A stretch of 64,000 nucleotides of DNA. Origin: a virus. Lineage: Duplodnaviria; Caudoviricetes. The stretch lies in the IMG/VR virus record IMGVR_UViG_3300021426_000063, positions 1 through 64,000 of that record; one strand, written 5' to 3'. The notes under the pieces are model-generated. The model did not search any database and was not told where the DNA came from. It saw only the letters and a list, made by a program, of their open reading frames with translations. The position numbers were made by a program, and so were the translations under genes. Of this stretch, positions 3,238 through 50,029 are shown piece after piece. Position 1 is the first letter of the stretch, and every line of letters begins with the position of its first letter.

Positions 3238-3726
3238 CTAATTTAATTTAACATATTTTCCTTCTATTCCACTTTCTCTCAATCTCTTGTCACATTCATC
3301 ACCAAATGCAATCAGACAGGATCCAAACATTGGACTCCTTGACTCTCCATTAGAATTGATGAACTTAACCCTTCTTCTCATAAAAATCATTGATTTGGCA
3401 TTTGGAAAGATGACCTCCTGGAATAAGAGATTGTCTGTTCTGTTTACAACTATTGCAATCCCATTATTATGTTCTGCCAGTTTCTGAACAAATGCCTTAA
3501 TAAGTTTACTACTGTAAGGTGGATTCAACCACACCACCTTATTTTTATCCCATTCCTTTGACAATCCATCCTGTTCAATGTTATATGTTTCCGGTGCAAT
3601 ATAAACAGGCGGATTCATTGCAGAACATGGATCCAAATCAAATGGTCCGAGAGTATCTATTAACCATTTTGGAGTATACCATTCATCAGATGATACAACC
3701 TCATTCTTCTGTTGCCTGTTATCCAT
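3238..3726 (-). CDS. Phage Dam-type DNA N6-adenine methyltransferase
   Basis: SDEWYTP, FDLDPC, WLNPPYS, RRVKF. Confidence 0.88.
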   Translation of the reverse strand: MDNRQQKNEVVSSDEWYTPKWLIDTLGPFDLDPCSAMNPPVYIAPETYNIEQDGLSKEWDKNKVVWLNPPYSSKLIKAFVQKLAEHNNGIAIVVNRTDNLLFQEVIFPNAKSMIFMRRRVKFINSNGESRSPMFGSCLIAFGDECDKRLRESGIEGKYVKLN

Positions 3727-4259: not shown

Positions 4260-4727
4260 TTAATGTTTAATCATTTCCTTAAAAAATTCACTCATACAAT
4301 CAACAACTATACTGTTTCCAGCCAATTGTGCTAACTGGTTATTACTGAGTCCCCCATCAACCAGTTTCTGAATATCATCATCTTCACATCCCATCATTCT
4401 CATAGACTCAAACCCAGACAATCTCCTTACTATATATTTTCCATTATCAATAAACAGAAACCTGGGACTGAATGACAATGTAAGTGTAGGACAAGTACCA
4501 ATAGGAGAATACACCCTGGTGTCCTGTGGATTATAAAAACCCGTTCTGTCAATATGGAGATTACCCAACTGCACCAGATGAGGGAACTTCTCCGGGACAG
4601 TATCCTCCATTCTCTCACCAAACAGATTGTATTCACCCCACATATCTGTGTCAAACTCCTTTACATTGGTATTGACATAGTTGGACTGCTTACCCTTTAC
4701 TTTCTTTTCTTCCTTAATCCTACTCAT
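4260..4727 (-). CDS. C5-cytosine methyltransferase C-terminal half (beta-1: TRD plus motifs IX-X)
   Basis: TRD-like QDTRVYSPIGTCPTLT, motif IX RRLSGFESMRMMG, motif X QLAGNSIVV; no motifs I-VIII. Confidence 0.85.
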   Translation of the reverse strand: MSRIKEEKKVKGKQSNYVNTNVKEFDTDMWGEYNLFGERMEDTVPEKFPHLVQLGNLHIDRTGFYNPQDTRVYSPIGTCPTLTLSFSPRFLFIDNGKYIVRRLSGFESMRMMGCEDDDIQKLVDGGLSNNQLAQLAGNSIVVDCMSEFFKEMIKH

Positions 4728-5085
4728 TTATAACTGTGATATTAACTTCAATATATTCAATTTCCCAATCTTCCGGATGGTTGCTGATTCTTATATCCAC
4801 ATAATCATCAGTTGTTCTATCAGATTGGATATCAATTCCAGGAATCTCACCATTGTGTATCTTCATACCAATCACATATTCAACAGGTAACTTCTTCTTA
4901 CTCCGACCTCTGTTGGCTATGAAATACAAGGTGTCATAAAAGAATACATGTTCAGGATTTGTCACCTGATTAAATGCATATTTGGTGTCATATACCTTAC
5001 CTTTTGCATCAAAATTGGTGTACTTACCCTTTAATGGTCTGAAATAAAGACCTGTTGGTTTATGTTTTATTCTATATAGTTTCAT
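4720..5085 (-). CDS. Hypothetical phage protein between the MTase halves
   Basis: 121 aa, MKLYRIKHKPTGLYF; overlaps both neighbours. Confidence 0.7.
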   Translation of the reverse strand: MKLYRIKHKPTGLYFRPLKGKYTNFDAKGKVYDTKYAFNQVTNPEHVFFYDTLYFIANRGRSKKKLPVEYVIGMKIHNGEIPGIDIQSDRTTDDYVDIRISNHPEDWEIEYIEVNITVINE

Positions 5086-5801
5086 TTCTGTATTCCTGCA
5101 AATTTTTTAAATTGTTCATTGTCTCTGAGATAAATGTCAGTGTTCTCATCTGGATCCACCAACTTCCCCCACAGTTCCTGACCAATCTCTTCCTTGGTCT
5201 GTATGAAATCAAGAGTATTCTTATTCAACTTCCATCCCCGTGGGAACACAAAGTCACCTTCTGGGTTCAGGATAGACACACAGAACACCCTCTCACGGTC
5301 CTGGGGGATACCAAAATCAGAACCCTTCAATACCTTCCAATAGTTTGTATAACCTCTGGATTCAAGATAGTTCAACCAAAGATTGAAAGTGTCTATGAAC
5401 CTCTCTGAAACAAGATTCTTCACATTCTCCAACATCAAGTATTTGGGTTTCTTGATGTCTATTGCTTTCTTACACTCCCAAAGTAATGATGACTTGGTAC
5501 CAGAACCCTCTTCACCACCAAGCATCTTTCCGGCCAGACTGAAGGATTGACAAGGTGACGAGTAAGTAAAGAAGTCAAAATCAGGTACATTCTCCCAGTC
5601 TATCTTACAGATGTCACCATAGTTCCTGTCCTTGTATTCAGGAAAAATGAGATTGTGTGCTTCTATTGCCCTCTTCTCAATCTCACTCCAACCTATAAGG
5701 TCAAAAGGAATACCTGCTTTTTTAAGAGCAAGACACTGTGAGTCATATCCTGAAAAAGTAGTGAATACTTTTAAGGGATTTTCTATTGTATATTTCTCCA
5801 T
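5082..5801 (-). CDS. C5-cytosine methyltransferase catalytic half (alpha-1: motifs I-VIII)
   Basis: FSGYDSQ (I), SEI (II), GDI (III), YSSPCQSFS (IV), ENV (VI), PQDRERVF (VIII); ends without TRD or motifs IX-X. Confidence 0.9.
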   Translation of the reverse strand: MEKYTIENPLKVFTTFSGYDSQCLALKKAGIPFDLIGWSEIEKRAIEAHNLIFPEYKDRNYGDICKIDWENVPDFDFFTYSSPCQSFSLAGKMLGGEEGSGTKSSLLWECKKAIDIKKPKYLMLENVKNLVSERFIDTFNLWLNYLESRGYTNYWKVLKGSDFGIPQDRERVFCVSILNPEGDFVFPRGWKLNKNTLDFIQTKEEIGQELWGKLVDPDENTDIYLRDNEQFKKFAGIQK

Positions 5802-42133: not shown

Positions 42134-42544
42134 TTATTCACTATCTGAATTATCATCTTCTTCATAAACCTCAACCACAGCCTTGTTTAAACCACAGAAG
42201 GTGGTCAAAGTGGTACACACATCCTTACTGGATGATATGACCATATGGGATCCTGGTTTTGGATTTGCCTGGCCATATCCCTGATGGTCAACTATATATC
42301 TTTCAGTTAATTTAATATCACCTTTTTTCACCATATAATCAATTGGGTCATCATATTCTTCAAGGACTGCTGTCATCAAAAATCTGTCTGGTCCATTCCA
42401 TGCTGCAAAATTACTTCGTCCACCTTTTGCATACCAGGCAACAATGGTTCTACAAGTTCCATCCTCACAGGTATTTATTGCTTTCTTTTTCATATCATTT
42501 ATTATACCAACAAACATATGTGAAATCTGGTCTGATAATCCCAT
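42134..42544 (-). CDS. Hypothetical protein
   Basis: Packed ORF; true start may be the MKKK ATG near 42492. Confidence 0.6.
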   Translation of the reverse strand: MGLSDQISHMFVGIINDMKKKAINTCEDGTCRTIVAWYAKGGRSNFAAWNGPDRFLMTAVLEEYDDPIDYMVKKGDIKLTERYIVDHQGYGQANPKPGSHMVISSSKDVCTTLTTFCGLNKAVVEVYEEDDNSDSE

Positions 42545-42896
42545 CTACAAATGCTCTTGGACTGGCCTCTATATTAGACACTTCTTTGTCAGTTGCATAA
42601 TATCCAACACCATCAGAATCCATAATACCACCATATATACAATGGGATTTAAATTCATTAATGGTCATCAGACACTCCTTGTCCAAATCATCCATTGGTT
42701 TCATCTCTGGAGTTTCCTTCATAGACTTTGCTGCATAAAGAGCTTCATTGTCATCCCAATAAGGCTTACACTTCACTCTCCATCTCTCATATGAATTACC
42801 ATCATCAGTATCCCAGATTTCTTTCAATTTCTTGCTATTTTCCTCAATCCTGGATTCTATCTCTTCAAGAGTGAGGTTATTATAATTTCTTACCAT
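42495..42896 (-). CDS. Hypothetical phage protein
   Basis: IMDSDGVGYYAT...YVCWYNK. Confidence 0.7.
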   Translation of the reverse strand: MVRNYNNLTLEEIESRIEENSKKLKEIWDTDDGNSYERWRVKCKPYWDDNEALYAAKSMKETPEMKPMDDLDKECLMTINEFKSHCIYGGIMDSDGVGYYATDKEVSNIEASPRAFVDGIIRPDFTYVCWYNK

Positions 42897-43627
42897 AATT
42901 CTTCTTCTGGTTGTTCAACACTTTCATCTTTTGAATGTTCCACACTCATAGTCTGGATATACCTGTCAGTGACCTCCTGCTTCATATAATACTTTTCAGG
43001 TACATTATCCTCCAACAGGTCTTCAACTGTCTTTTTGAGTGGAATAGGTCTTGGGAACTCATAATAAGGTTCTGGTTCATCATCTGTCTTCAAGATAGAG
43101 ATCATGAAAATCCTCTCCCTGGACTGGGGAACACCATAATCCTTGGCATTGAGAACCTGATGGAAATTGGAATAACCATAAGATTCCAACTCCTTACACC
43201 ACTTCTCAAAGAGATACTTGAACTTATCTGTCACCAGGGCTTTCACATTCTCAAACATCAGATACTTTGGTTTCTTGGCAAGGATAGTCTTCCTACACTC
43301 CCAAAGAAGGGATGACCTGGTACCAGAACCCTCCTCACCACCAGCCTGCTGACCAGCATTCGAGAAATCGGTGCAAGGTGATGAATAAGTAAACAGGTCA
43401 AAATCAGGAACTTGTGACCAGTCAATCTTGGAGATGTCACCATAATTCCTGTCAGCATATTGGGGGAACAGAGCATTATGTGCCTTGATGGCTGCTGGGT
43501 CTATCTCTGACCAGCCTACCAAATCATAATCAATCCCCAGTCTGTTGAGTGCCAGACACTGGGAATCATAACCAGAGAATGCAGTGAACACTCTCAAAGG
43601 ATTTTCTTTTGTATATTTCTTTACCAT
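42890..43627 (-). CDS. C5-cytosine methyltransferase catalytic half (alpha-2: motifs I-VIII)
   Basis: FSGYDSQ, YSSPCTDFS, ENV, PQSRERIF; paralog of 5082-5801; no TRD or motifs IX-X; ATG at 43627. Confidence 0.9.
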   Translation of the reverse strand: MVKKYTKENPLRVFTAFSGYDSQCLALNRLGIDYDLVGWSEIDPAAIKAHNALFPQYADRNYGDISKIDWSQVPDFDLFTYSSPCTDFSNAGQQAGGEEGSGTRSSLLWECRKTILAKKPKYLMFENVKALVTDKFKYLFEKWCKELESYGYSNFHQVLNAKDYGVPQSRERIFMISILKTDDEPEPYYEFPRPIPLKKTVEDLLEDNVPEKYYMKQEVTDRYIQTMSVEHSKDESVEQPEEELW

Positions 43628-43631
43628 AAAC

Positions 43632-43874
43632 CTATTTATTATCAAGTTCTTGCTGCTTCTTTAACTTCTTTTCATCCAACCACTTTTGTATCCTCTCATT
43701 TAATTGTTCTCTTTCTGTCATTATTCTATAATATCCATCCTTTGTACATTTTTCTTTTGGACAATACTTATCATCTTTAAGAGAACAAACATCACATCCT
43801 TTTTCACCAAAACAATCCAATTCCCATTTATATCTAAATCTAAATTTATCTCCAATTATAAAAATATCATCCAT
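43632..43874 (-). CDS. Small Cys-containing hypothetical protein
   Basis: Packed ORF. Confidence 0.6.
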   Translation of the reverse strand: MDDIFIIGDKFRFRYKWELDCFGEKGCDVCSLKDDKYCPKEKCTKDGYYRIMTEREQLNERIQKWLDEKKLKKQQELDNK

Positions 43875-43876
43875 AA

Positions 43877-44593
43877 CTATAACTTAATTTCATCTATTTT
43901 CTCAATCCATTCAGGTCTTATATTATCCATAGTAAAATATGAATCAAACCCTCTTGCATTTGGGTCTTTATAAAGTTTTATATTCTCAACTTTATTGAAA
44001 TCAATCCTGTAAACAGAGTATTCTTTAATCCTCTTTTTATTTAAAAGTGATTTATCAATTTCTTTTTTAAAAACTTGATTCATCATTTTATAGAAAATAG
44101 GTTCATATAATTTTATACATATCCTGTGCAAGAATTCTAAATCACCATTAGACAATAGATAAATTCTATCTGGATATTTGAATCTATAATTTCTACTTCT
44201 TGGTATCAAACCCATTGTCTGAATTTTCTTATCATTGATAGATGGTGTCAGATGATAAAAATATTGTATTTCACCAGATTGTTTTAATTTATCAAATATA
44301 TTTTCTTCATATATCTTCTCATATGTGTAATAATCATCAATATTTTCATCTGCTTGATAATATCCACCAAGTTTCAATACACTTTCAACATCATCAAACA
44401 AATTTTCATCTAATTTCTTACTCACAAGAATATATTCACCATCATCTATATATAATTCAACAGAATCATCATCAAGATTATACTTCTTTTGTATGTATCT
44501 TACAACCTTGTCTGCTGGATATGTCATCAGGAGACCCTCATTCAATGATGTCTCCTGAACAAACTCATCAAAATCCAATACATTCTTTACCAT
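43877..44593 (-). CDS. Putative ADP-ribosyltransferase-fold protein with a capsid-targeting-like leader
   Basis: FYHLT...N...I...GLIP....RIYL...NIRPEWI (Tpt1/DarT-like ART signature); N-terminus VLDFDEFVQETSLNEGL. Confidence 0.55.
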   Translation of the reverse strand: MVKNVLDFDEFVQETSLNEGLLMTYPADKVVRYIQKKYNLDDDSVELYIDDGEYILVSKKLDENLFDDVESVLKLGGYYQADENIDDYYTYEKIYEENIFDKLKQSGEIQYFYHLTPSINDKKIQTMGLIPRSRNYRFKYPDRIYLLSNGDLEFLHRICIKLYEPIFYKMMNQVFKKEIDKSLLNKKRIKEYSVYRIDFNKVENIKLYKDPNARGFDSYFTMDNIRPEWIEKIDEIKL

Positions 44594-44811
44594 AACTGTA
44601 TATCTTTCTTTTTAGGTTCATTCCTGTTGATGAATAACTTGTCAAACATATGTACCATACAATCAACCACAATTGAGTTACCATACATTTTATAAAGTGC
44701 ATTGTCACTCAAATCACAGCTGAGCATAATATCAATATCCTTGTCATCAACTCCCATCAGTCTACCACACTCCCTTGGTGTCATCTTCCTGATTCTGTAG
44801 TACTTCTTCAT
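44587..44811 (-). CDS. C5-MTase C-terminal mini-subunit (beta-0: motifs IX-X only, 74 aa)
   Basis: RIRKMTPRECGRLMGV...LYKMYGNSIVVDCM; ATG at 44811 directly after promoter 44816-44827. Confidence 0.82.
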   Translation of the reverse strand: MKKYYRIRKMTPRECGRLMGVDDKDIDIMLSCDLSDNALYKMYGNSIVVDCMVHMFDKLFINRNEPKKKDIQLW

Positions 44812-44828
44812 ACTATAAATATAACAAA

Positions 44829-45107
44829 TTATTTCCCTGAACATACAAGATAATACCTGTGGAGAAGACCATAAGGTACTTGTTTCCAAAGTACTTTCTC
44901 ATAAATCTTAATACTTGCATCAAGTGCTTCTTTTTCAGTTTCAAAAGAGACAAATCCTTCACCAGTGACAACTTCAATAAAAGTATCAACCTTGTAAGGG
45001 TATAATCTACACATATCACTCAACTTCTCTGGGAAGAAGTCAAGGTCTCGGAGTATCCATCTGTCTCCATACTTATTCACCAGTCTGGCAATAGTTTCTT
45101 TATTCAT
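44829..45107 (-). CDS. Hypothetical protein
   Basis: Packed ORF. Confidence 0.65.
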   Translation of the reverse strand: MNKETIARLVNKYGDRWILRDLDFFPEKLSDMCRLYPYKVDTFIEVVTGEGFVSFETEKEALDASIKIYEKVLWKQVPYGLLHRYYLVCSGK

Positions 45108-45108
45108 A

Positions 45109-45315
45109 TTACTCTACATCAAAATCTAAATTATCAACATCAATATTATTATGATAAAGGACTTGTAAAAACTCATATATACCTGATGAGAAAGAATCCT
45201 TGACATCATCATATCTATATTCCTTATCCTTCCTCAAACTCACTCCAATGCTAAGTCCCCAGGAATAATTTTTCCACTTGTCTTCAATGAATTTGTTTAA
45301 TTTATCATTCTCCAT
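45109..45315 (-). CDS. Hypothetical protein
   Basis: Packed ORF. Confidence 0.6.
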   Translation of the reverse strand: MENDKLNKFIEDKWKNYSWGLSIGVSLRKDKEYRYDDVKDSFSSGIYEFLQVLYHNNIDVDNLDFDVE

Positions 45316-45484
45316 AATTTTCCCAAGTTATTTTTAATTTTGATGGTTTATCCATAACAACAGGTGGATGTTGTTTCAGTACCTTTATGAGTTGATCAAC
45401 AGCATTGGATGCAGTCATCATCCAACAAGTAGTCTCTCTTCTCAACAACAAACATATTGTCTTCCTTTCTTCTTGTGTCAACAT
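45305..45484 (-). CDS. Small hypothetical protein (59 aa)
   Basis: Hand-translated MLTQEERKTICLLLRRETTCWMMTASNAVDQLIKVLKQHPP... Confidence 0.55.
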   Translation of the reverse strand: MLTQEERKTICLLLRRETTCWMMTASNAVDQLIKVLKQHPPVVMDKPSKLKITWENYGE

Positions 45485-45486
45485 AT

Positions 45487-45831
45487 CTAAAACAATTTTA
45501 TTTCTTCTTTTGGTTTCCTTTCTTCATAAAAGAGTTCCCTGAATATCTCTGTCATCACATCAACAACAATGGAGTTTCCAAAGAGGGAATTGACCACACC
45601 TGGTGCAAGGACACCTGTCATCTTGTCAATATCAGAATCATCCACTCCCATCAGTCTCCCAATCTCCTTGGTTGTCATCTTCCTGATTCTTCCATTATCA
45701 AGTATTTTGAGATAACTGTTTGTGTTGTTATGCTGACCCACACAGATACAACGGCAGACCCCATCGGTGTACATCACTGTATCCTGCTGATGTGGACCAA
45801 CCTTGACTATGTGTATATCATTGTTTAGCAT
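45487..45831 (-). CDS. C5-MTase C-terminal half (beta-2: TRD plus motifs IX-X)
   Basis: TRD-like HQQDTVMYTDGVCRCI; RIRKMTTKEIGRLMGV; SLFGNSIVVDVM. Confidence 0.85.
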   Translation of the reverse strand: MLNNDIHIVKVGPHQQDTVMYTDGVCRCICVGQHNNTNSYLKILDNGRIRKMTTKEIGRLMGVDDSDIDKMTGVLAPGVVNSLFGNSIVVDVMTEIFRELFYEERKPKEEIKLF

Positions 45832-46339
45832 CTACCAAACCTTTATCAACAAAACCCTTTACTATATTGTCTATCTTGTTCTGCCTGTGTTCATGAAGGT
45901 CAAGATTGTCACTTACAAACTTATAGGAAATAATATGTTCAAATCCAAGAGCCCTTATATATGCCAACTCCATATCAAACAGACAATCCTTTTCCTCTGT
46001 CTGTGTAACAAAGTCTGTACTTGTAAGACATTTCTTTATTTCAAGAGTTGTATCATTATCAATCCAACCAATAAAAGGGATATCCTGAAGTTTTTCATTA
46101 TATTCAACATTGGGATGATAAAGACCAACCTGACTTACAGCATAGAACTTACCTATTTCCAGGTCTTTACTTCCTGCATAACCAATATTTACAATCTCTG
46201 TATCTCTTGGAATATCCTTAAGGGCATCAATGACATTCATCGCCCCAACACCTGTAATAAGAACTGGTCTGTGTCCATAACCAAGTTTCTTGACCAGTTT
46301 CATTTCTTCTGCTTCTGCAATTACTACTAATTTCTTCAT
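45818..46339 (-). CDS. MTA/SAH nucleosidase-like protein (PNP/UDP superfamily)
   Basis: ITGVGAMN, VNIGYAGS, TSTDFV, FDMELA, KFVSDN. Confidence 0.72.
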   Translation of the reverse strand: MKKLVVIAEAEEMKLVKKLGYGHRPVLITGVGAMNVIDALKDIPRDTEIVNIGYAGSKDLEIGKFYAVSQVGLYHPNVEYNEKLQDIPFIGWIDNDTTLEIKKCLTSTDFVTQTEEKDCLFDMELAYIRALGFEHIISYKFVSDNLDLHEHRQNKIDNIVKGFVDKGLVDAKQ

Positions 46340-46348
46340 ACTTTTAAT

Positions 46349-46564
46349 CTATGTAATGTCAACAATTTCAAACTCATCCAAAAATGATTGTTTCTCCCGG
46401 GCAAAACAGTTGTACTCATTCTCATACAATGGTGCATATAAAATTGCATCAACCCAACCATTTGCTGAATCTTTTATTCTCATATTACATTCAACAATCT
46501 TATATTGTCTGTTGTACTTTACATGAACAACAACAAGTCCATTCTTCAATTCTTCTGATTTCAT
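46349..46564 (-). CDS. DUF1653-like protein
   Basis: H.K....Y......W..AILY......FARE..SF..EF. Confidence 0.6.
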   Translation of the reverse strand: MKSEELKNGLVVVHVKYNRQYKIVECNMRIKDSANGWVDAILYAPLYENEYNCFAREKQSFLDEFEIVDIT

Positions 46565-46878
46565 AAATTATTTGTTTCAATGAATACTATATCTTTACTT
46601 TCAAACAAAATATCATTTATCTTTCCACACACACCATCTTCAACATTCTTCCTCTCTCCTTTAACAATCTTGAATATTGGATTGGCATCTATCCTGGACC
46701 AGGTAACATATTCTACCTCACATTCATTCTCTGTTCCTTTATTGAACACAATGGTCTTATCTTTTGGCCAAGTCTTCTGTATTTTTCTCAAAAAACCATA
46801 CCAAAATTCATCATCTGATTGTTTCCACATATCCATCAGATTGTTGCACTTACACTTAAAATATACTATATTATCCAT
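46561..46878 (-). CDS. Hypothetical protein
   Basis: Packed ORF. Confidence 0.65.
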   Translation of the reverse strand: MDNIVYFKCKCNNLMDMWKQSDDEFWYGFLRKIQKTWPKDKTIVFNKGTENECEVEYVTWSRIDANPIFKIVKGERKNVEDGVCGKINDILFESKDIVFIETNNL

Positions 46879-46880
46879 AA

Positions 46881-47414
46881 TTAAAACAATGGTATTTCTG
46901 GATTCTTTCTTTCACTAAATAAATTTCTGAACATCTCTGTCATCACATTCACCACAATGGAATTGCCGGCAAGTTTCTTTCTGAATTTTGAAGGTACTGC
47001 ATCAATTATCTTCTGTGTATCTTCTGGATCCACATCCATCAGTCTGAATGCCTCCCTGTCAGTTAACTCTCTCACCTTGTAGTTCCTGTCCCAGACATAA
47101 TTGTCCATTGAGAAGGTGGTGAGAGTGTTGGAATATCCATCTCCCGTTGGTTCAGCATAGACCCCCTTTCCAAACTTCTTTCCTGCATCACCAAACCTGT
47201 GTCTCCTCAACTTCTCCTCTTCAGTTCTTTTCTGCTTCAATATCTGTGGTGGTTTCAATCCATCAGCAAAGAGATAAACATCATCACCAACCACCTTACA
47301 CATCATAGGAAGAGTAGTCCTGAGATACTTCCTTTTCTCCCAGTCCTTCTTTTTGAAATAGAGTTCTTCTGGAACATCTTTCTCAATTATCTCTTCCAGT
47401 GTGGTTTGCTTCAT
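46881..47414 (-). CDS. C5-MTase C-terminal half (beta-3: TRD plus motifs IX-X)
   Basis: TRD-like PTGDGYSNTLTTFSMDNYV; KVRELTDREAFRLMDV; KLAGNSIVVNVM. Confidence 0.85.
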   Translation of the reverse strand: MKQTTLEEIIEKDVPEELYFKKKDWEKRKYLRTTLPMMCKVVGDDVYLFADGLKPPQILKQKRTEEEKLRRHRFGDAGKKFGKGVYAEPTGDGYSNTLTTFSMDNYVWDRNYKVRELTDREAFRLMDVDPEDTQKIIDAVPSKFRKKLAGNSIVVNVMTEMFRNLFSERKNPEIPLF

Positions 47415-47673
47415 ATTCTTCTTTATCCATTAACATTCTCACAACATCTCTCCACCATTCATAATATTGCTTATTTTCATAACTCATATCATCCATATAA
47501 GTATTCCAAGCAATATAACACATATCCCTTGCTTCATCCAATTCTGTTTTGTCTTCTGTCAATAATCTGATATATTCTGCATATTCCTCCTTATTCAAAA
47601 ACAATGGAAAAAAGATTCTCTTATACCATTTAAGACCTTTCTTGAATGATATATATTCTAAATAGGTTGCCAT
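47383..47673 (-). CDS. Hypothetical protein
   Basis: Packed ORF. Confidence 0.6.
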   Translation of the reverse strand: MATYLEYISFKKGLKWYKRIFFPLFLNKEEYAEYIRLLTEDKTELDEARDMCYIAWNTYMDDMSYENKQYYEWWRDVVRMLMDKEEYEANHTGRDN

Positions 47674-50018
47674 ATCCTTTTCTTTAATTCATTACCAATT
47701 CGTTCAACAATTCCACACACAAGTGCATTACCCATCAGAAACCCTCTCTTTTTGTCAGTAGTACCCTCTGTATGATTATCTGGGAACATCTGTATCCTTT
47801 CCAGTTCAATGGGCACTAAACGCCTTAATTTGCCTGTTTCTGGGTCTTGTATAATATGTGTAAATCTGTTTGATACAATAGACACCTCACTTGTGATTAA
47901 TGTCCTTGCTGGTTTATCTAATGGGTCAGGAAATGCCATACTTCCCTCTGTGTACATATACTCATGTCCATCCTTACTGGTCCTGGGTATCTGCTTCGGA
48001 CCCTTGGCATACTTCCACTTCTCAACATCATCATTAGATAAATAATAATCTTCTGTAATATACTTCCTGTCATCTCCTTTCACCAGGATATCTCCAAGGG
48101 TTGTATATGGTCCAGAATAATCAGGAATGAGTTTATCTGTATATATAACCCCATCAATGACAACACCACCATTCTCAAATGGATTGGAAACAACATTACC
48201 CTTATTGAAGTTATCAGAGAGATAAACAAGGTCTGTATTCAATCTTCTTCCATCAAGACCCCACAATCCCTGATCTACATTGGGTTTGACAGGAAATGCC
48301 TTTGCCAATACACCATCTATATACAACCAGGAATCAGGAGAGGAAATCTTGAACTCACCTTTCAGAAATGCAAAGATGAATATTCTTCTTCTCTTCTGTG
48401 GCATACCATATTCAGCAGCATTGATAACCCTCCATTCAATGTTATATCCAAGGTTTATCAATGATTGGAGAATAAGTGCAAAATCCCTACCCCTTTGTTT
48501 GGATGGGGAGATAATCATCCTGTCCACATTCTCAAAAAGAAGGAACTTTGGTTTTTCCTTCATTTCAGAAAGAAGTCTGATGACCTGCCACCAGAGAACA
48601 CCTTTCTTTCCCTCAATACCAAGGGATTTGGTTTTATTCCTGGCAACACTATAATCCTGACAATTATGTGTTATACAATGATTTGCAATAAATGAATGAC
48701 TTTCATCTACTTCAATATCATACACAGGTTGTTCAATATATTCTTCAATCTTTGAAATTGGATACCAAATATATCCATCCTCATAGAAATATGTTGAATG
48801 AACAGGTTCAGAAAATCTATATTTTAATTGATAAAAATTATTCTGATTTACAAGTCTACCTTCTATTATCTTTTCTTCTGGAACTTTACATAATGACAAC
48901 ATTGTTGGTTTATGATATACCTTCTCAACACAATGTGCAATGCCATATAAAAGTTCCTTACTAACAGATGTAAACTGGTTATATATTCCTGTTACACATC
49001 CATCACTATCTTGATATCCTTTTAGTAACTGTTCAAGAAGATTTATAGGTAAATCAAATACAAATCCTGGTAATCTCTTTGTTCTTGCAGAATGTTCTTC
49101 TCCTGAATAAAATTGTTCACAGAAATGAGCAAGTTCTATATCACTAAATATAAAATTATATGTTGTTGTATTTTCAGCAATAGTATAATGATATTTATCT
49201 GATATTTTTGATGCAAATTCATCAATTTCATCTTTACCACAACAAATACCAATACCATTATATTTGTATCTGTGTTCACCTTTCTTCTGTTGCTTTCTCA
49301 ACCAACCATCTCCAAGAAATCTGCCAACAATATACCATAAATTTTCATCAGTCATATCCAAGTTACAATGTGTTTCCGAAACAAACTGATTTTTATTTAT
49401 GGTTAATCCTCTCCATTCTGGAATAATACTGTTTTGATTGATTGCAGATCCCATATAGTAATCCTTATAACAATCTTTCAGGTCATCAACAGATTTCCAT
49501 TCTGGTTGTGAGAATGATTTTATATATACAGGTTTTCCTTTTAATCTTGTACTTCTTTGTATCTTTTCCCGTACAAGAAATCTATGGTTTCCTGTTGCCT
49601 CAATAGTATCAAATCCACTTGCCTTAATCTTATAAGTTTGTTTGATACCTTGATTCATAAATTTATTGACTCTATGATACTGGTTATCATGTCCAAGTAC
49701 CATATCACCCTCTTTAACATCTGTGATATACTTATATCCATCAGATGTCAACACAAAGGTATTCCCAGACAAGCAAGGAAATCCACCAACCATAAGATCA
49801 GCTTCCAAATCCTTACCAGAAACCTTGCAAATATCATCATTTATCAATAAGTCATTTGGAAATCTCTTCCTGTATATATTGGCAGCAAACTGGTCTTTGG
49901 TACCAGGTTCCCACTGGTTGGCCAAAACACACTTATAGAATCCATTGCCTGCTCTGTCAAAGCCAACATGGAATCCACCAACACCAGCAAATAATTCTAT
50001 GTATCTACACTCTTTCAT
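47658..50018 (-). CDS. Full-length C5-cytosine methyltransferase of the M.Sau3AI type (likely GATC), intein-containing
   Basis: ELFAGVGGF, ANQWEP, GGFP|CQDYSVAR, GIEGKKGVLWW, ENVDR..SPSKQRGRDF, QKRRRIFI, ARTLITSE, RRLVPIELER, MGNALV. Confidence 0.9.
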   Translation of the reverse strand: MKECRYIELFAGVGGFHVGFDRAGNGFYKCVLANQWEPGTKDQFAANIYRKRFPNDLLINDDICKVSGKDLEADLMVGGFPCLSGNTFVLTSDGYKYITDVKEGDMVLGHDNQYHRVNKFMNQGIKQTYKIKASGFDTIEATGNHRFLVREKIQRSTRLKGKPVYIKSFSQPEWKSVDDLKDCYKDYYMGSAINQNSIIPEWRGLTINKNQFVSETHCNLDMTDENLWYIVGRFLGDGWLRKQQKKGEHRYKYNGIGICCGKDEIDEFASKISDKYHYTIAENTTTYNFIFSDIELAHFCEQFYSGEEHSARTKRLPGFVFDLPINLLEQLLKGYQDSDGCVTGIYNQFTSVSKELLYGIAHCVEKVYHKPTMLSLCKVPEEKIIEGRLVNQNNFYQLKYRFSEPVHSTYFYEDGYIWYPISKIEEYIEQPVYDIEVDESHSFIANHCITHNCQDYSVARNKTKSLGIEGKKGVLWWQVIRLLSEMKEKPKFLLFENVDRMIISPSKQRGRDFALILQSLINLGYNIEWRVINAAEYGMPQKRRRIFIFAFLKGEFKISSPDSWLYIDGVLAKAFPVKPNVDQGLWGLDGRRLNTDLVYLSDNFNKGNVVSNPFENGGVVIDGVIYTDKLIPDYSGPYTTLGDILVKGDDRKYITEDYYLSNDDVEKWKYAKGPKQIPRTSKDGHEYMYTEGSMAFPDPLDKPARTLITSEVSIVSNRFTHIIQDPETGKLRRLVPIELERIQMFPDNHTEGTTDKKRGFLMGNALVCGIVERIGNELKKRIWQPI
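48663..49775 (-). mobile_element. Intein (371 aa) with a LAGLIDADG homing endonuclease, inserted in MTase motif IV
   Basis: Starts CLSGNT, ends VYDIEVDESHSFIANHCITHN before Cys+1; internal YIVGRFLGDGW and LLKGYQDSDG blocks. Confidence 0.93.
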
Positions 50019-50029
50019 AATTAACACCT

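Follow-up and report, generated by a model that had tools for sequence, protein, structure and literature searches.

C5-cytosine methyltransferases (MTases) are textbook single-chain enzymes, and to our knowledge only two natural exceptions, both made of two chains, exist. The Bacillus phage enzymes M.SPRI, M.Phi3TI and M.Rho11sI, the work of Trautner, Noyer-Weidner and co-workers, are reportedly multispecific. Here we describe a phage locus that differs from both arrangements. It lies in the virus record IMGVR_UViG_3300021426_000063 (Duplodnaviria; Caudoviricetes), of which we analysed the first 64,000 nucleotides (henceforth, the window; the first 64 kb of a 233-kb record that is estimated to be 62% complete; 35% G+C). 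At its centre is a gene, A1, that encodes the catalytic half of a C5-MTase; other genes of the same locus encode the parts that A1 lacks, namely the target recognition domain (TRD) and motifs IX-X. The published two-chain enzymes are M.AquI and M.EcoHK31I (PMC3404938, PMC5944983), the former being the two-subunit C5-MTase of Karreman and de Waard 1990 as described in PMC3404938. N- and C-terminal fragments of M.BspRI, M.BsuRI, M.HhaI and M.SssI, split after motif VIII, assemble into active enzyme (PMC3404938, PMC5944983), and natural circularly permuted forms are represented by M.BssHII, M.Alw26I, M2.Eco31I, M.Esp3I and M2.BsaI (PMC5944983). On balance, we favour the reading that A1 is the catalytic core common to several separately encoded specificity partners and, with them, forms a multi-subunit, multispecific C5-MTase.

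The genes of the locus are tightly packed and all on the minus strand; from position 50027 down, their order is F, D, a nucleosidase-like gene, C, B, two unrelated genes, A1, another unrelated gene and T. The coordinates given in a preliminary description of the window proved correct to within a start codon, and the MTase parts are the following:

47658-50027, minus strand: F, full-length C5-MTase with a LAGLIDADG intein (about 48663-49775) between the P and C of motif IV; PF00145, Intein_splicing, LAGLIDADG_3
46881-47414, minus strand: D, hinge, TRD (NTLTTF..DN..WD) and motifs IX-X; 177 aa, ending in ..IPLF
45487-45831, minus strand: C, TRD (Q.DT..Y..G.C.C type) and motifs IX-X; 114 aa, ending in ..IKLF
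44587-44811, minus strand: B, motifs IX-X only, no TRD; 74 aa, ending in ..IQLW
42890-43627, minus strand: A1, catalytic half, motifs I-VIII and the hinge after VIII; 245 aa, ending in ..EELW
42134-42493, minus strand: T, TRD-only protein downstream of A1, with modules T1 (about 42350-42493) and T2 (about 42134-42331) and an acidic tail

The open reading frame (ORF) of A1, 42890-43645, matches PF00145 at profile positions 6-225 (E 1e-52), its true start being placed at ATG 43627 by the orthologues. The PC, ENV and QxRxR motifs are intact, and P84, C85, E126, N127, V128, Q168, R170 and R172 are invariant in the alignment; the gene thus carries motifs I-VIII with the catalytic PC, as had been proposed. 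The three upstream genes said to encode motifs IX-X do so: B (ORF 44587-44889, true start ATG 44811) matches the profile at 270-322 (E 6e-8), C at 269-322 (E 3e-6) and D at 188-323 (E 7e-5), and the matches at 269-323 all exceed the Pfam cut-off. By Pfam and by sequence, the motif sets of A1 and of B, C and D are complementary. The preliminary description also counted two TRD-bearing genes and one without a TRD, and C and D indeed have TRDs of their own and B has none, but it overlooked the TRD-only gene T; B would lack a TRD because T supplies it. The TRD sequences of C, D, T1, T2 and of E, a gene of a second locus considered below, are clearly different from one another. The usual monomeric form, with all ten motifs and the TRD in one polypeptide, is not what is found at A1, where the parts are separate ORFs in the window and in every close relative; the only single-chain C5-MTase of the window's locus is F.

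Megablast of the locus against phage records gave no match, and DNA near-identical to the window is present in runs recorded as goat and cattle gut metagenomes. Relatives were found among ruminant-gut phages of 250-410 kb, on contigs of 62-411 kb (L001, L002, L003/L013 and L010), and all of these have the order F-D-C-B-A1-T with every piece an intact ORF. Identity to the window is 79-91% for D, 74-92% for C, 67-81% for B, 82-88% for A1 and 69-86% for T; for C, the range of 74-92% covers the orthologues in L001-L003, L010 and L021. The genes between the pieces are variably present and, at 46-82% identity to the window, less conserved than the MTase pieces. Estimated with the Nei-Gojobori method, the ratio of nonsynonymous to synonymous substitution rates (dN/dS) is 0.04-0.10 for D, 0.06-0.20 for C, 0.08-0.32 for B, 0.07-0.16 for T and 0.09-0.13 for A1, and at the second locus 0.04 for the catalytic gene A2 and 0.03-0.06 for E; the values hold at dS from 0.5 to over 2. 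The pieces are under strong purifying selection and are functional genes, not debris. Neutral decay of the genes for motifs IX-X, which the preliminary description named as a ground for refutation, is thus not what is seen, with dN/dS of 0.04-0.32 across the pieces.

The same data bear on whether the pieces are joined by splicing, frameshifting, DNA rearrangement or protein splicing, or are simply decaying fragments. Group I introns and inteins are abundant in giant gut phages related to this one (PMC12880540), an intein is present in the locus, and the halves of each locus are in the same reading frame. Decay, however, is excluded by dN/dS values far below 1, and every relative has the ORFs intact. 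A search of the window against Rfam, with its group I intron families, gave no match at the gathering score and, at E up to 1, hits at chance level only; the gene order is permuted, with whole genes between the pieces; and the locus has no long direct or inverted repeats, no shufflon-like repeats, no homopolymer, simple-repeat or slippery tracts, and no intein ends at the piece boundaries. In the contig comparison, in which every run was represented by contigs and uncovered parts carry no meaning, the joints show presence or absence of inserts only and no joined forms. We consider joining or decay highly improbable, and the earlier exclusion of frameshifting, readthrough and cis-splicing holds in the face of these searches for introns, recombination repeats, slippery tracts and joined contigs. 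An alternative genetic code, considered for the shared frame of the halves, was rejected, as stop codons of all three kinds are plentiful in the intervening frame. Contigs of RNA libraries made from the source sample overlap A1, C, D and F; carry-over of DNA is possible, and we make no claim of expression.

The window contains a second split MTase:

5082-5801, minus strand: A2, second catalytic half, motifs I-VIII; 239 aa; PF00145 profile 2-181, E 4e-47
4260-4727, minus strand: E, TRD and motifs IX-X, partner of A2; 155 aa; weak Pfam match, motifs IX-X plain in the sequence

The counts of catalytic and IX-X genes come from G001 and G002, two relatives that are each 94% complete. In both, E starts within the stop codon of A2 (an ATGA overlap), and from this arrangement A2-E is read as a fixed, translationally coupled, M.AquI-like pair, that is, a separate and simple two-chain enzyme. 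The features of the M.AquI type, an alpha chain with motifs I-VIII, a beta chain with TRD and motifs IX-X, adjacent genes and a one-to-one ratio, are all present at A2-E; A1 departs from this pattern, with three IX-X genes and a single TRD-only gene that are non-adjacent. The only catalytic genes of G001 and G002 are F, A1 and A2, and their IX-X genes are B, C, D and E: two catalytic halves stand against four IX-X genes. With A2 coupled to E and no other catalytic half in the two genomes, A1 remains as the half for B, C and D.

Pairing of the extra IX-X genes one to one with other catalytic halves, either A2 or one outside the incomplete record, is conceivable, the record of the window being estimated to be only 62% complete. 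The 94%-complete relatives nevertheless show no further catalytic half, A2 is translationally coupled to E in all relatives, and a C-terminal LF or LW, which A2 and E lack, unites A1 with B, C and D; we regard such pairing as quite unlikely. By the same evidence, a free combinatorial kit of two catalytic and four specificity subunits, as had been suggested, is not supported: A2-E is a fixed, coupled pair without the LF/LW tail.

Further support for A1 as a shared core comes from phages in which the parts are fused or rearranged. Two MTases, P0140 and P0141, have the ordinary single-chain form (370-374 aa). In P0140, identity to A1 is 56% for the N-terminal half, while the C-terminal half matches 99% of the length of D at 43% identity. 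In L014, motifs IX-X are fused ahead of motifs I-VIII while the TRDs are free, and in L008, TRD-IX-X is fused ahead of I-VIII, which is the known 'type H' permutation; in both, the IX-X part fused to A is of the B type. L023 has a fusion of a TRD to B, and L004 and L007 are single chains with internal TRDs. In the more distant phages, the parts are clustered round A and their number varies: L017 and L022 have a compact operon D-B-A-T; L023 has F, D, a free TRD, the TRD fused to B, A, T1 and T2; and L021, with F, D, C, B, a further TRD+IX-X gene, A, T1 and T2, has four IX-X genes and two TRD mini-genes to one A. Relatives with variable numbers of stand-alone IX-X genes, for which the preliminary description had proposed a survey, thus exist. 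The stand-alone D family comprises about 50 clusters (at 90% identity), all of 175-179 aa and reaching down to 54% identity, in which the TRD, motifs IX-X (R..LT..E, GNSI) and the final L[FW] are invariant or nearly so.

These observations also weigh on the idea that C and D (and T) are kept for another job, as DNA binders or regulators, as dominant-negative modulators of A1 or of a host methylase, or as partners of a host enzyme or another phage enzyme. C and D are 2-4 kb from A1 with unrelated genes between, D directly follows F in L002, L021 and L023, and purifying selection on C and D shows a function but not which one. On the other hand, motifs IX and X are meaningful only within the MTase fold and yet are invariant in the D family, single chains with A-type and D-type halves exist, D stands directly beside B-A in L017 and L022, and F, being complete, has no need of a partner. 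A1 as the partner of C and D is favoured by the fusions, by the synteny with A and by the common tail, and we think another job for these proteins unlikely.

A complex of A1 and D was modelled from their own alignments in three runs and scored 0.88-0.89, against 0.01 for the best control; in calibration, the mark of 0.89 was reached by 58/80 solved complexes and by 2/110 mismatched pairs. The runs have at least 87% of contacts in common, and the pLDDT (predicted local distance difference test) of the partner is at least 82. The predicted interface is canonical: the motif X helix of D (151-167) lies on residues 19-32 and 43-53 of A1, in the motif I/II lobe, the TRD of D (91-98) adjoins PC, ENV and QxRxR, and the last ten residues of D are free. 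The co-folding expected for catalytic and specificity halves is thus seen for A1 and D at 0.89, and the model indicates that the two halves are compatible; it speaks for binding but is no demonstration of it. PDB sequence searches with D and T gave weak matches only, D aligning to M.MpeI over motifs IX-X with E 0.2.

The conserved genetic architecture of the locus is well supported by the sequences, and from its anatomy, conservation, selection, gene counts and fusions we infer how the parts would assemble, act and differ in specificity. A1 alone, without a TRD and motifs IX-X, would be inactive, and one of several small proteins would complete it in trans. D or C would each supply a TRD and motifs IX-X, while B would supply IX-X only and then draw on one or the other TRD module of T. 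The small protein would pack its motif X helix on the lobe of A1 that binds S-adenosylmethionine, and the TRD would close over the catalytic loop. Alternative partners would compete for one surface of A1, so that different holoenzymes, with up to four specificities among them, would coexist in an infected cell and methylate the phage DNA against host restriction; A2-E would act as a separate two-chain enzyme and F as a single-chain one.

Several points weigh against this scheme. The hinge after motif VIII (profile 188-225) is present in both A1 and D, so one copy would be redundant in the complex. The score of the A1+D model may partly reflect likeness to known structures, because single-chain C5-MTases have been solved. 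For the three-chain form A1+B+T, the evidence is gene order and fusions only, and T alone is modelled without a confident fold; the activity of A1, the binding of its partners and the methylation motif are predictions from sequence. The earlier claim of one catalytic half served by several specificity genes stands as far as synteny, dN/dS, counts, the D family, the fusions and the A1+D model reach, the activity being what we infer from them.

T itself is, judging from its matches, made of TRD modules. An exhaustive search with it returned small proteins (56-113 aa), each similar to one half of T, the first or the second; each module is found elsewhere as a gene of its own (56-69 aa), and L010, L021 and L023 encode the halves of T separately, in genes of 58-77 aa. 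Four tandem repeats align to module 1 at 32-39% identity in P0137, a protein of 415 aa without a catalytic part, in which the repeats run straight into motifs IX-X and whose start overlaps the end of the preceding catalytic-half gene. P0142 is likewise a multi-TRD beta chain, with several TRDs and motifs IX-X but no catalytic part, and its last TRD is of the D type. The structure prediction for T is poor (pLDDT 58, below 50 for module 1), and a PDB structure search with it gave no match at E < 1. TRD modules are also found in the more distant and G+C-richer L014 (8644-9181) and L008 (8644-9036), where successive modules follow the fused IX-X/I-VIII core in alternating overlapping frames, one module being nested in the other frame of a two-module ORF.

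The gene junctions suggest how the pieces came to be separated. The stop codon of B overlaps the start of A1 (ATGGTAA) in L001, L003, L010, L017 and L022. An overlap of the A1 stop with the T start occurs in L002 and L003, and the junction sequence is identical across the B/A1 and A1/T overlaps: TTATGGTAA. B-A1-T can thus be read as a circularly permuted enzyme divided over three genes with translational coupling, and in the window later gene insertions have pushed the three apart. The inserted genes of the two loci are the following:

43632-44593, minus strand: inserted cassette of two genes (238 aa and 80 aa) between B and A1; no Pfam or PHROG match
42495-42896, minus strand: inserted 133-aa gene between A1 and T; matches phrog_14149 (function unknown)
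4720-5085, minus strand: inserted 121-aa gene between A2 and E; no Pfam or PHROG match

The cassette interrupts the B/A1 junction precisely and has a 13-nt direct repeat of that junction, TTATGGTAAAGAA, on its two sides (window 43617-43640 and 44583-44606); it is absent from L001, L003, L010 and one contig of run X19; its first gene begins with MVK, as does A1. The 133-aa gene is found in the window and L001 only and is absent from L002 and L003, and the 121-aa gene is absent from L015 and L016; both are inserted precisely between translationally coupled MTase parts. Pfam and PHROGs searches assigned no function to the inserted genes. F is without its intein in L001-L003, L010 and contigs of runs X3 and X4. 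The site occupied by inteins is the same throughout, between the P and C of motif IV, the catalytic Cys being residue +1, but the C5-MTase paralogue that carries the intein differs between phages: it is F in the window, A1 in L010, L017, L021 and L022, and A2 in G001 (coordinates: window 48663-49775; L010 6666-8477; L016 1028-2872; L017 10771-12420).

One more gene of the methylase operon may serve the enzyme:

45818-46339, minus strand: methylthioadenosine/S-adenosylhomocysteine (MTA/SAH)-nucleosidase-like gene within the methylase operon; 173 aa

Its product has no Pfam match, but its model (pLDDT 78) has MTAN enzymes as the best PDB matches (E 4e-7; template modelling score 0.55-0.61), and the gene is kept beside C or D in relatives (L001-L003, L023). 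From the model, it probably clears the methylation by-product SAH and would in this way remove a product inhibitor of the MTases. Methylase genes are dense in the window: just downstream of A2-E is a Dam-type N6-adenine MTase at 3238-3726 (PF05869, E 7e-16).

The C-terminal tails deserve separate consideration. A1 and B end in LW and C and D in LF, while A2, E and F end in neither. In the whole record, C-terminal LF is seen 8 times against 0.64 expected and LW 3 times against 0.19; together, 11 cases against 0.84 make an about 13-fold enrichment. Other carriers are a family-B DNA polymerase (..AGLW), an N4/N6 DNA MTase (..EKLF) and several unknown proteins, and coordinates in G000 related to LF/LW are 109338-113756, 131359-131826 and 162222-162977. 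The MTase parts of relatives end in ..QLSLF, ..QQLELF, ..QQLTLDL, ..LTLF and ..KRLF, and helicase-like genes in ..SPKLF. The bacterial beta-clamp-binding motif is reported to be QL[SD]LF or QLxLxL (Dalrymple et al. 2001), and in sequence the tails look like it. The gp45 and DnaN Pfam families were searched for in G000, G001 and G002 and no phage clamp gene was found; the host clamp would therefore be the target. For B and A1, overlap with the start codon of the following gene partly dictates the LW, but LW and LF interchange within the D family, and C of L021 ends in LW without an overlap. That the tail is a sliding-clamp-binding motif on A1, B, C, D, some TRD mini-proteins, the family-B DNA polymerase and the N6/N4 methylases, with the clamp (probably the host beta clamp) as a scaffold holding the catalytic half and one specificity subunit behind the replication fork, is a doubtful proposition that we put forward tentatively. 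If true, the enzyme would be a replication-coupled, clamp-assembled combinatorial MTase whose specificity shifts by gain or loss of genes for 60-180 aa.

Should A1 be the shared core that we propose, the C5-MTase fold could be operated, as Type I systems are, with swappable S subunits, broader anti-restriction cover could come to giant gut phages at the price of one 60-180-aa gene, and the locus would offer ready-made orthogonal split-MTase parts for targeted DNA methylation tools. For annotation, it would give a role to small genes that now are unnamed or called fragments. The literature, of which our coverage is incomplete, yielded no description of a natural C5-MTase with one core and many partners or of free TRD proteins, and the impression that a one-to-many split system was undescribed has so far held.

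Among the described systems, M.AquI is alike in being split in the variable region after motif VIII, with a large chain of motifs I-VIII and a small chain of TRD and motifs IX-X. A2-E, with its overlapping genes, is a full match to it; at A1, the place of the single beta chain would be taken by three IX-X partners and a TRD-only protein, and the partners are upstream and non-adjacent. The multispecific MTases of Bacillus phages share with the enzyme proposed for A1 the use of one core with several short TRD modules (presumably each with a target of its own), the carriage on phages and the anti-restriction role, and the tandem modules of T, P0137 and P0142 resemble their tandem TRDs. Those enzymes have all their TRDs on a single chain, between motifs VIII and IX, whereas the TRDs of this locus are encoded by separate genes, some with their own IX-X: the tandem modules of T are on a chain of their own, and C and D have one TRD each. 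In the circularly permuted C5-MTases, IX-X is encoded before motif I, and the order C or D and then A1 corresponds to the 'type H' TRD-IX-X-I-VIII, of which L008 is a fused case. The parts in the window are separate genes, however, and not the one polypeptide of the M.BssHII type, fused forms being found in L008 and L014; B-A1-T (IX-X, I-VIII, TRD) is another permutation. Fragment complementation was achieved with laboratory constructs, whereas the split here is natural, conserved and one-to-many. Finally, the HsdS subunit of Type I systems provides a functional analogy, as a separate polypeptide sets the target of a common catalytic subunit and new targets come by swapping; the fold and enzyme class are unrelated, and motifs of the catalytic fold, which HsdS lacks, are present in B, C and D as IX-X of the MTase fold.

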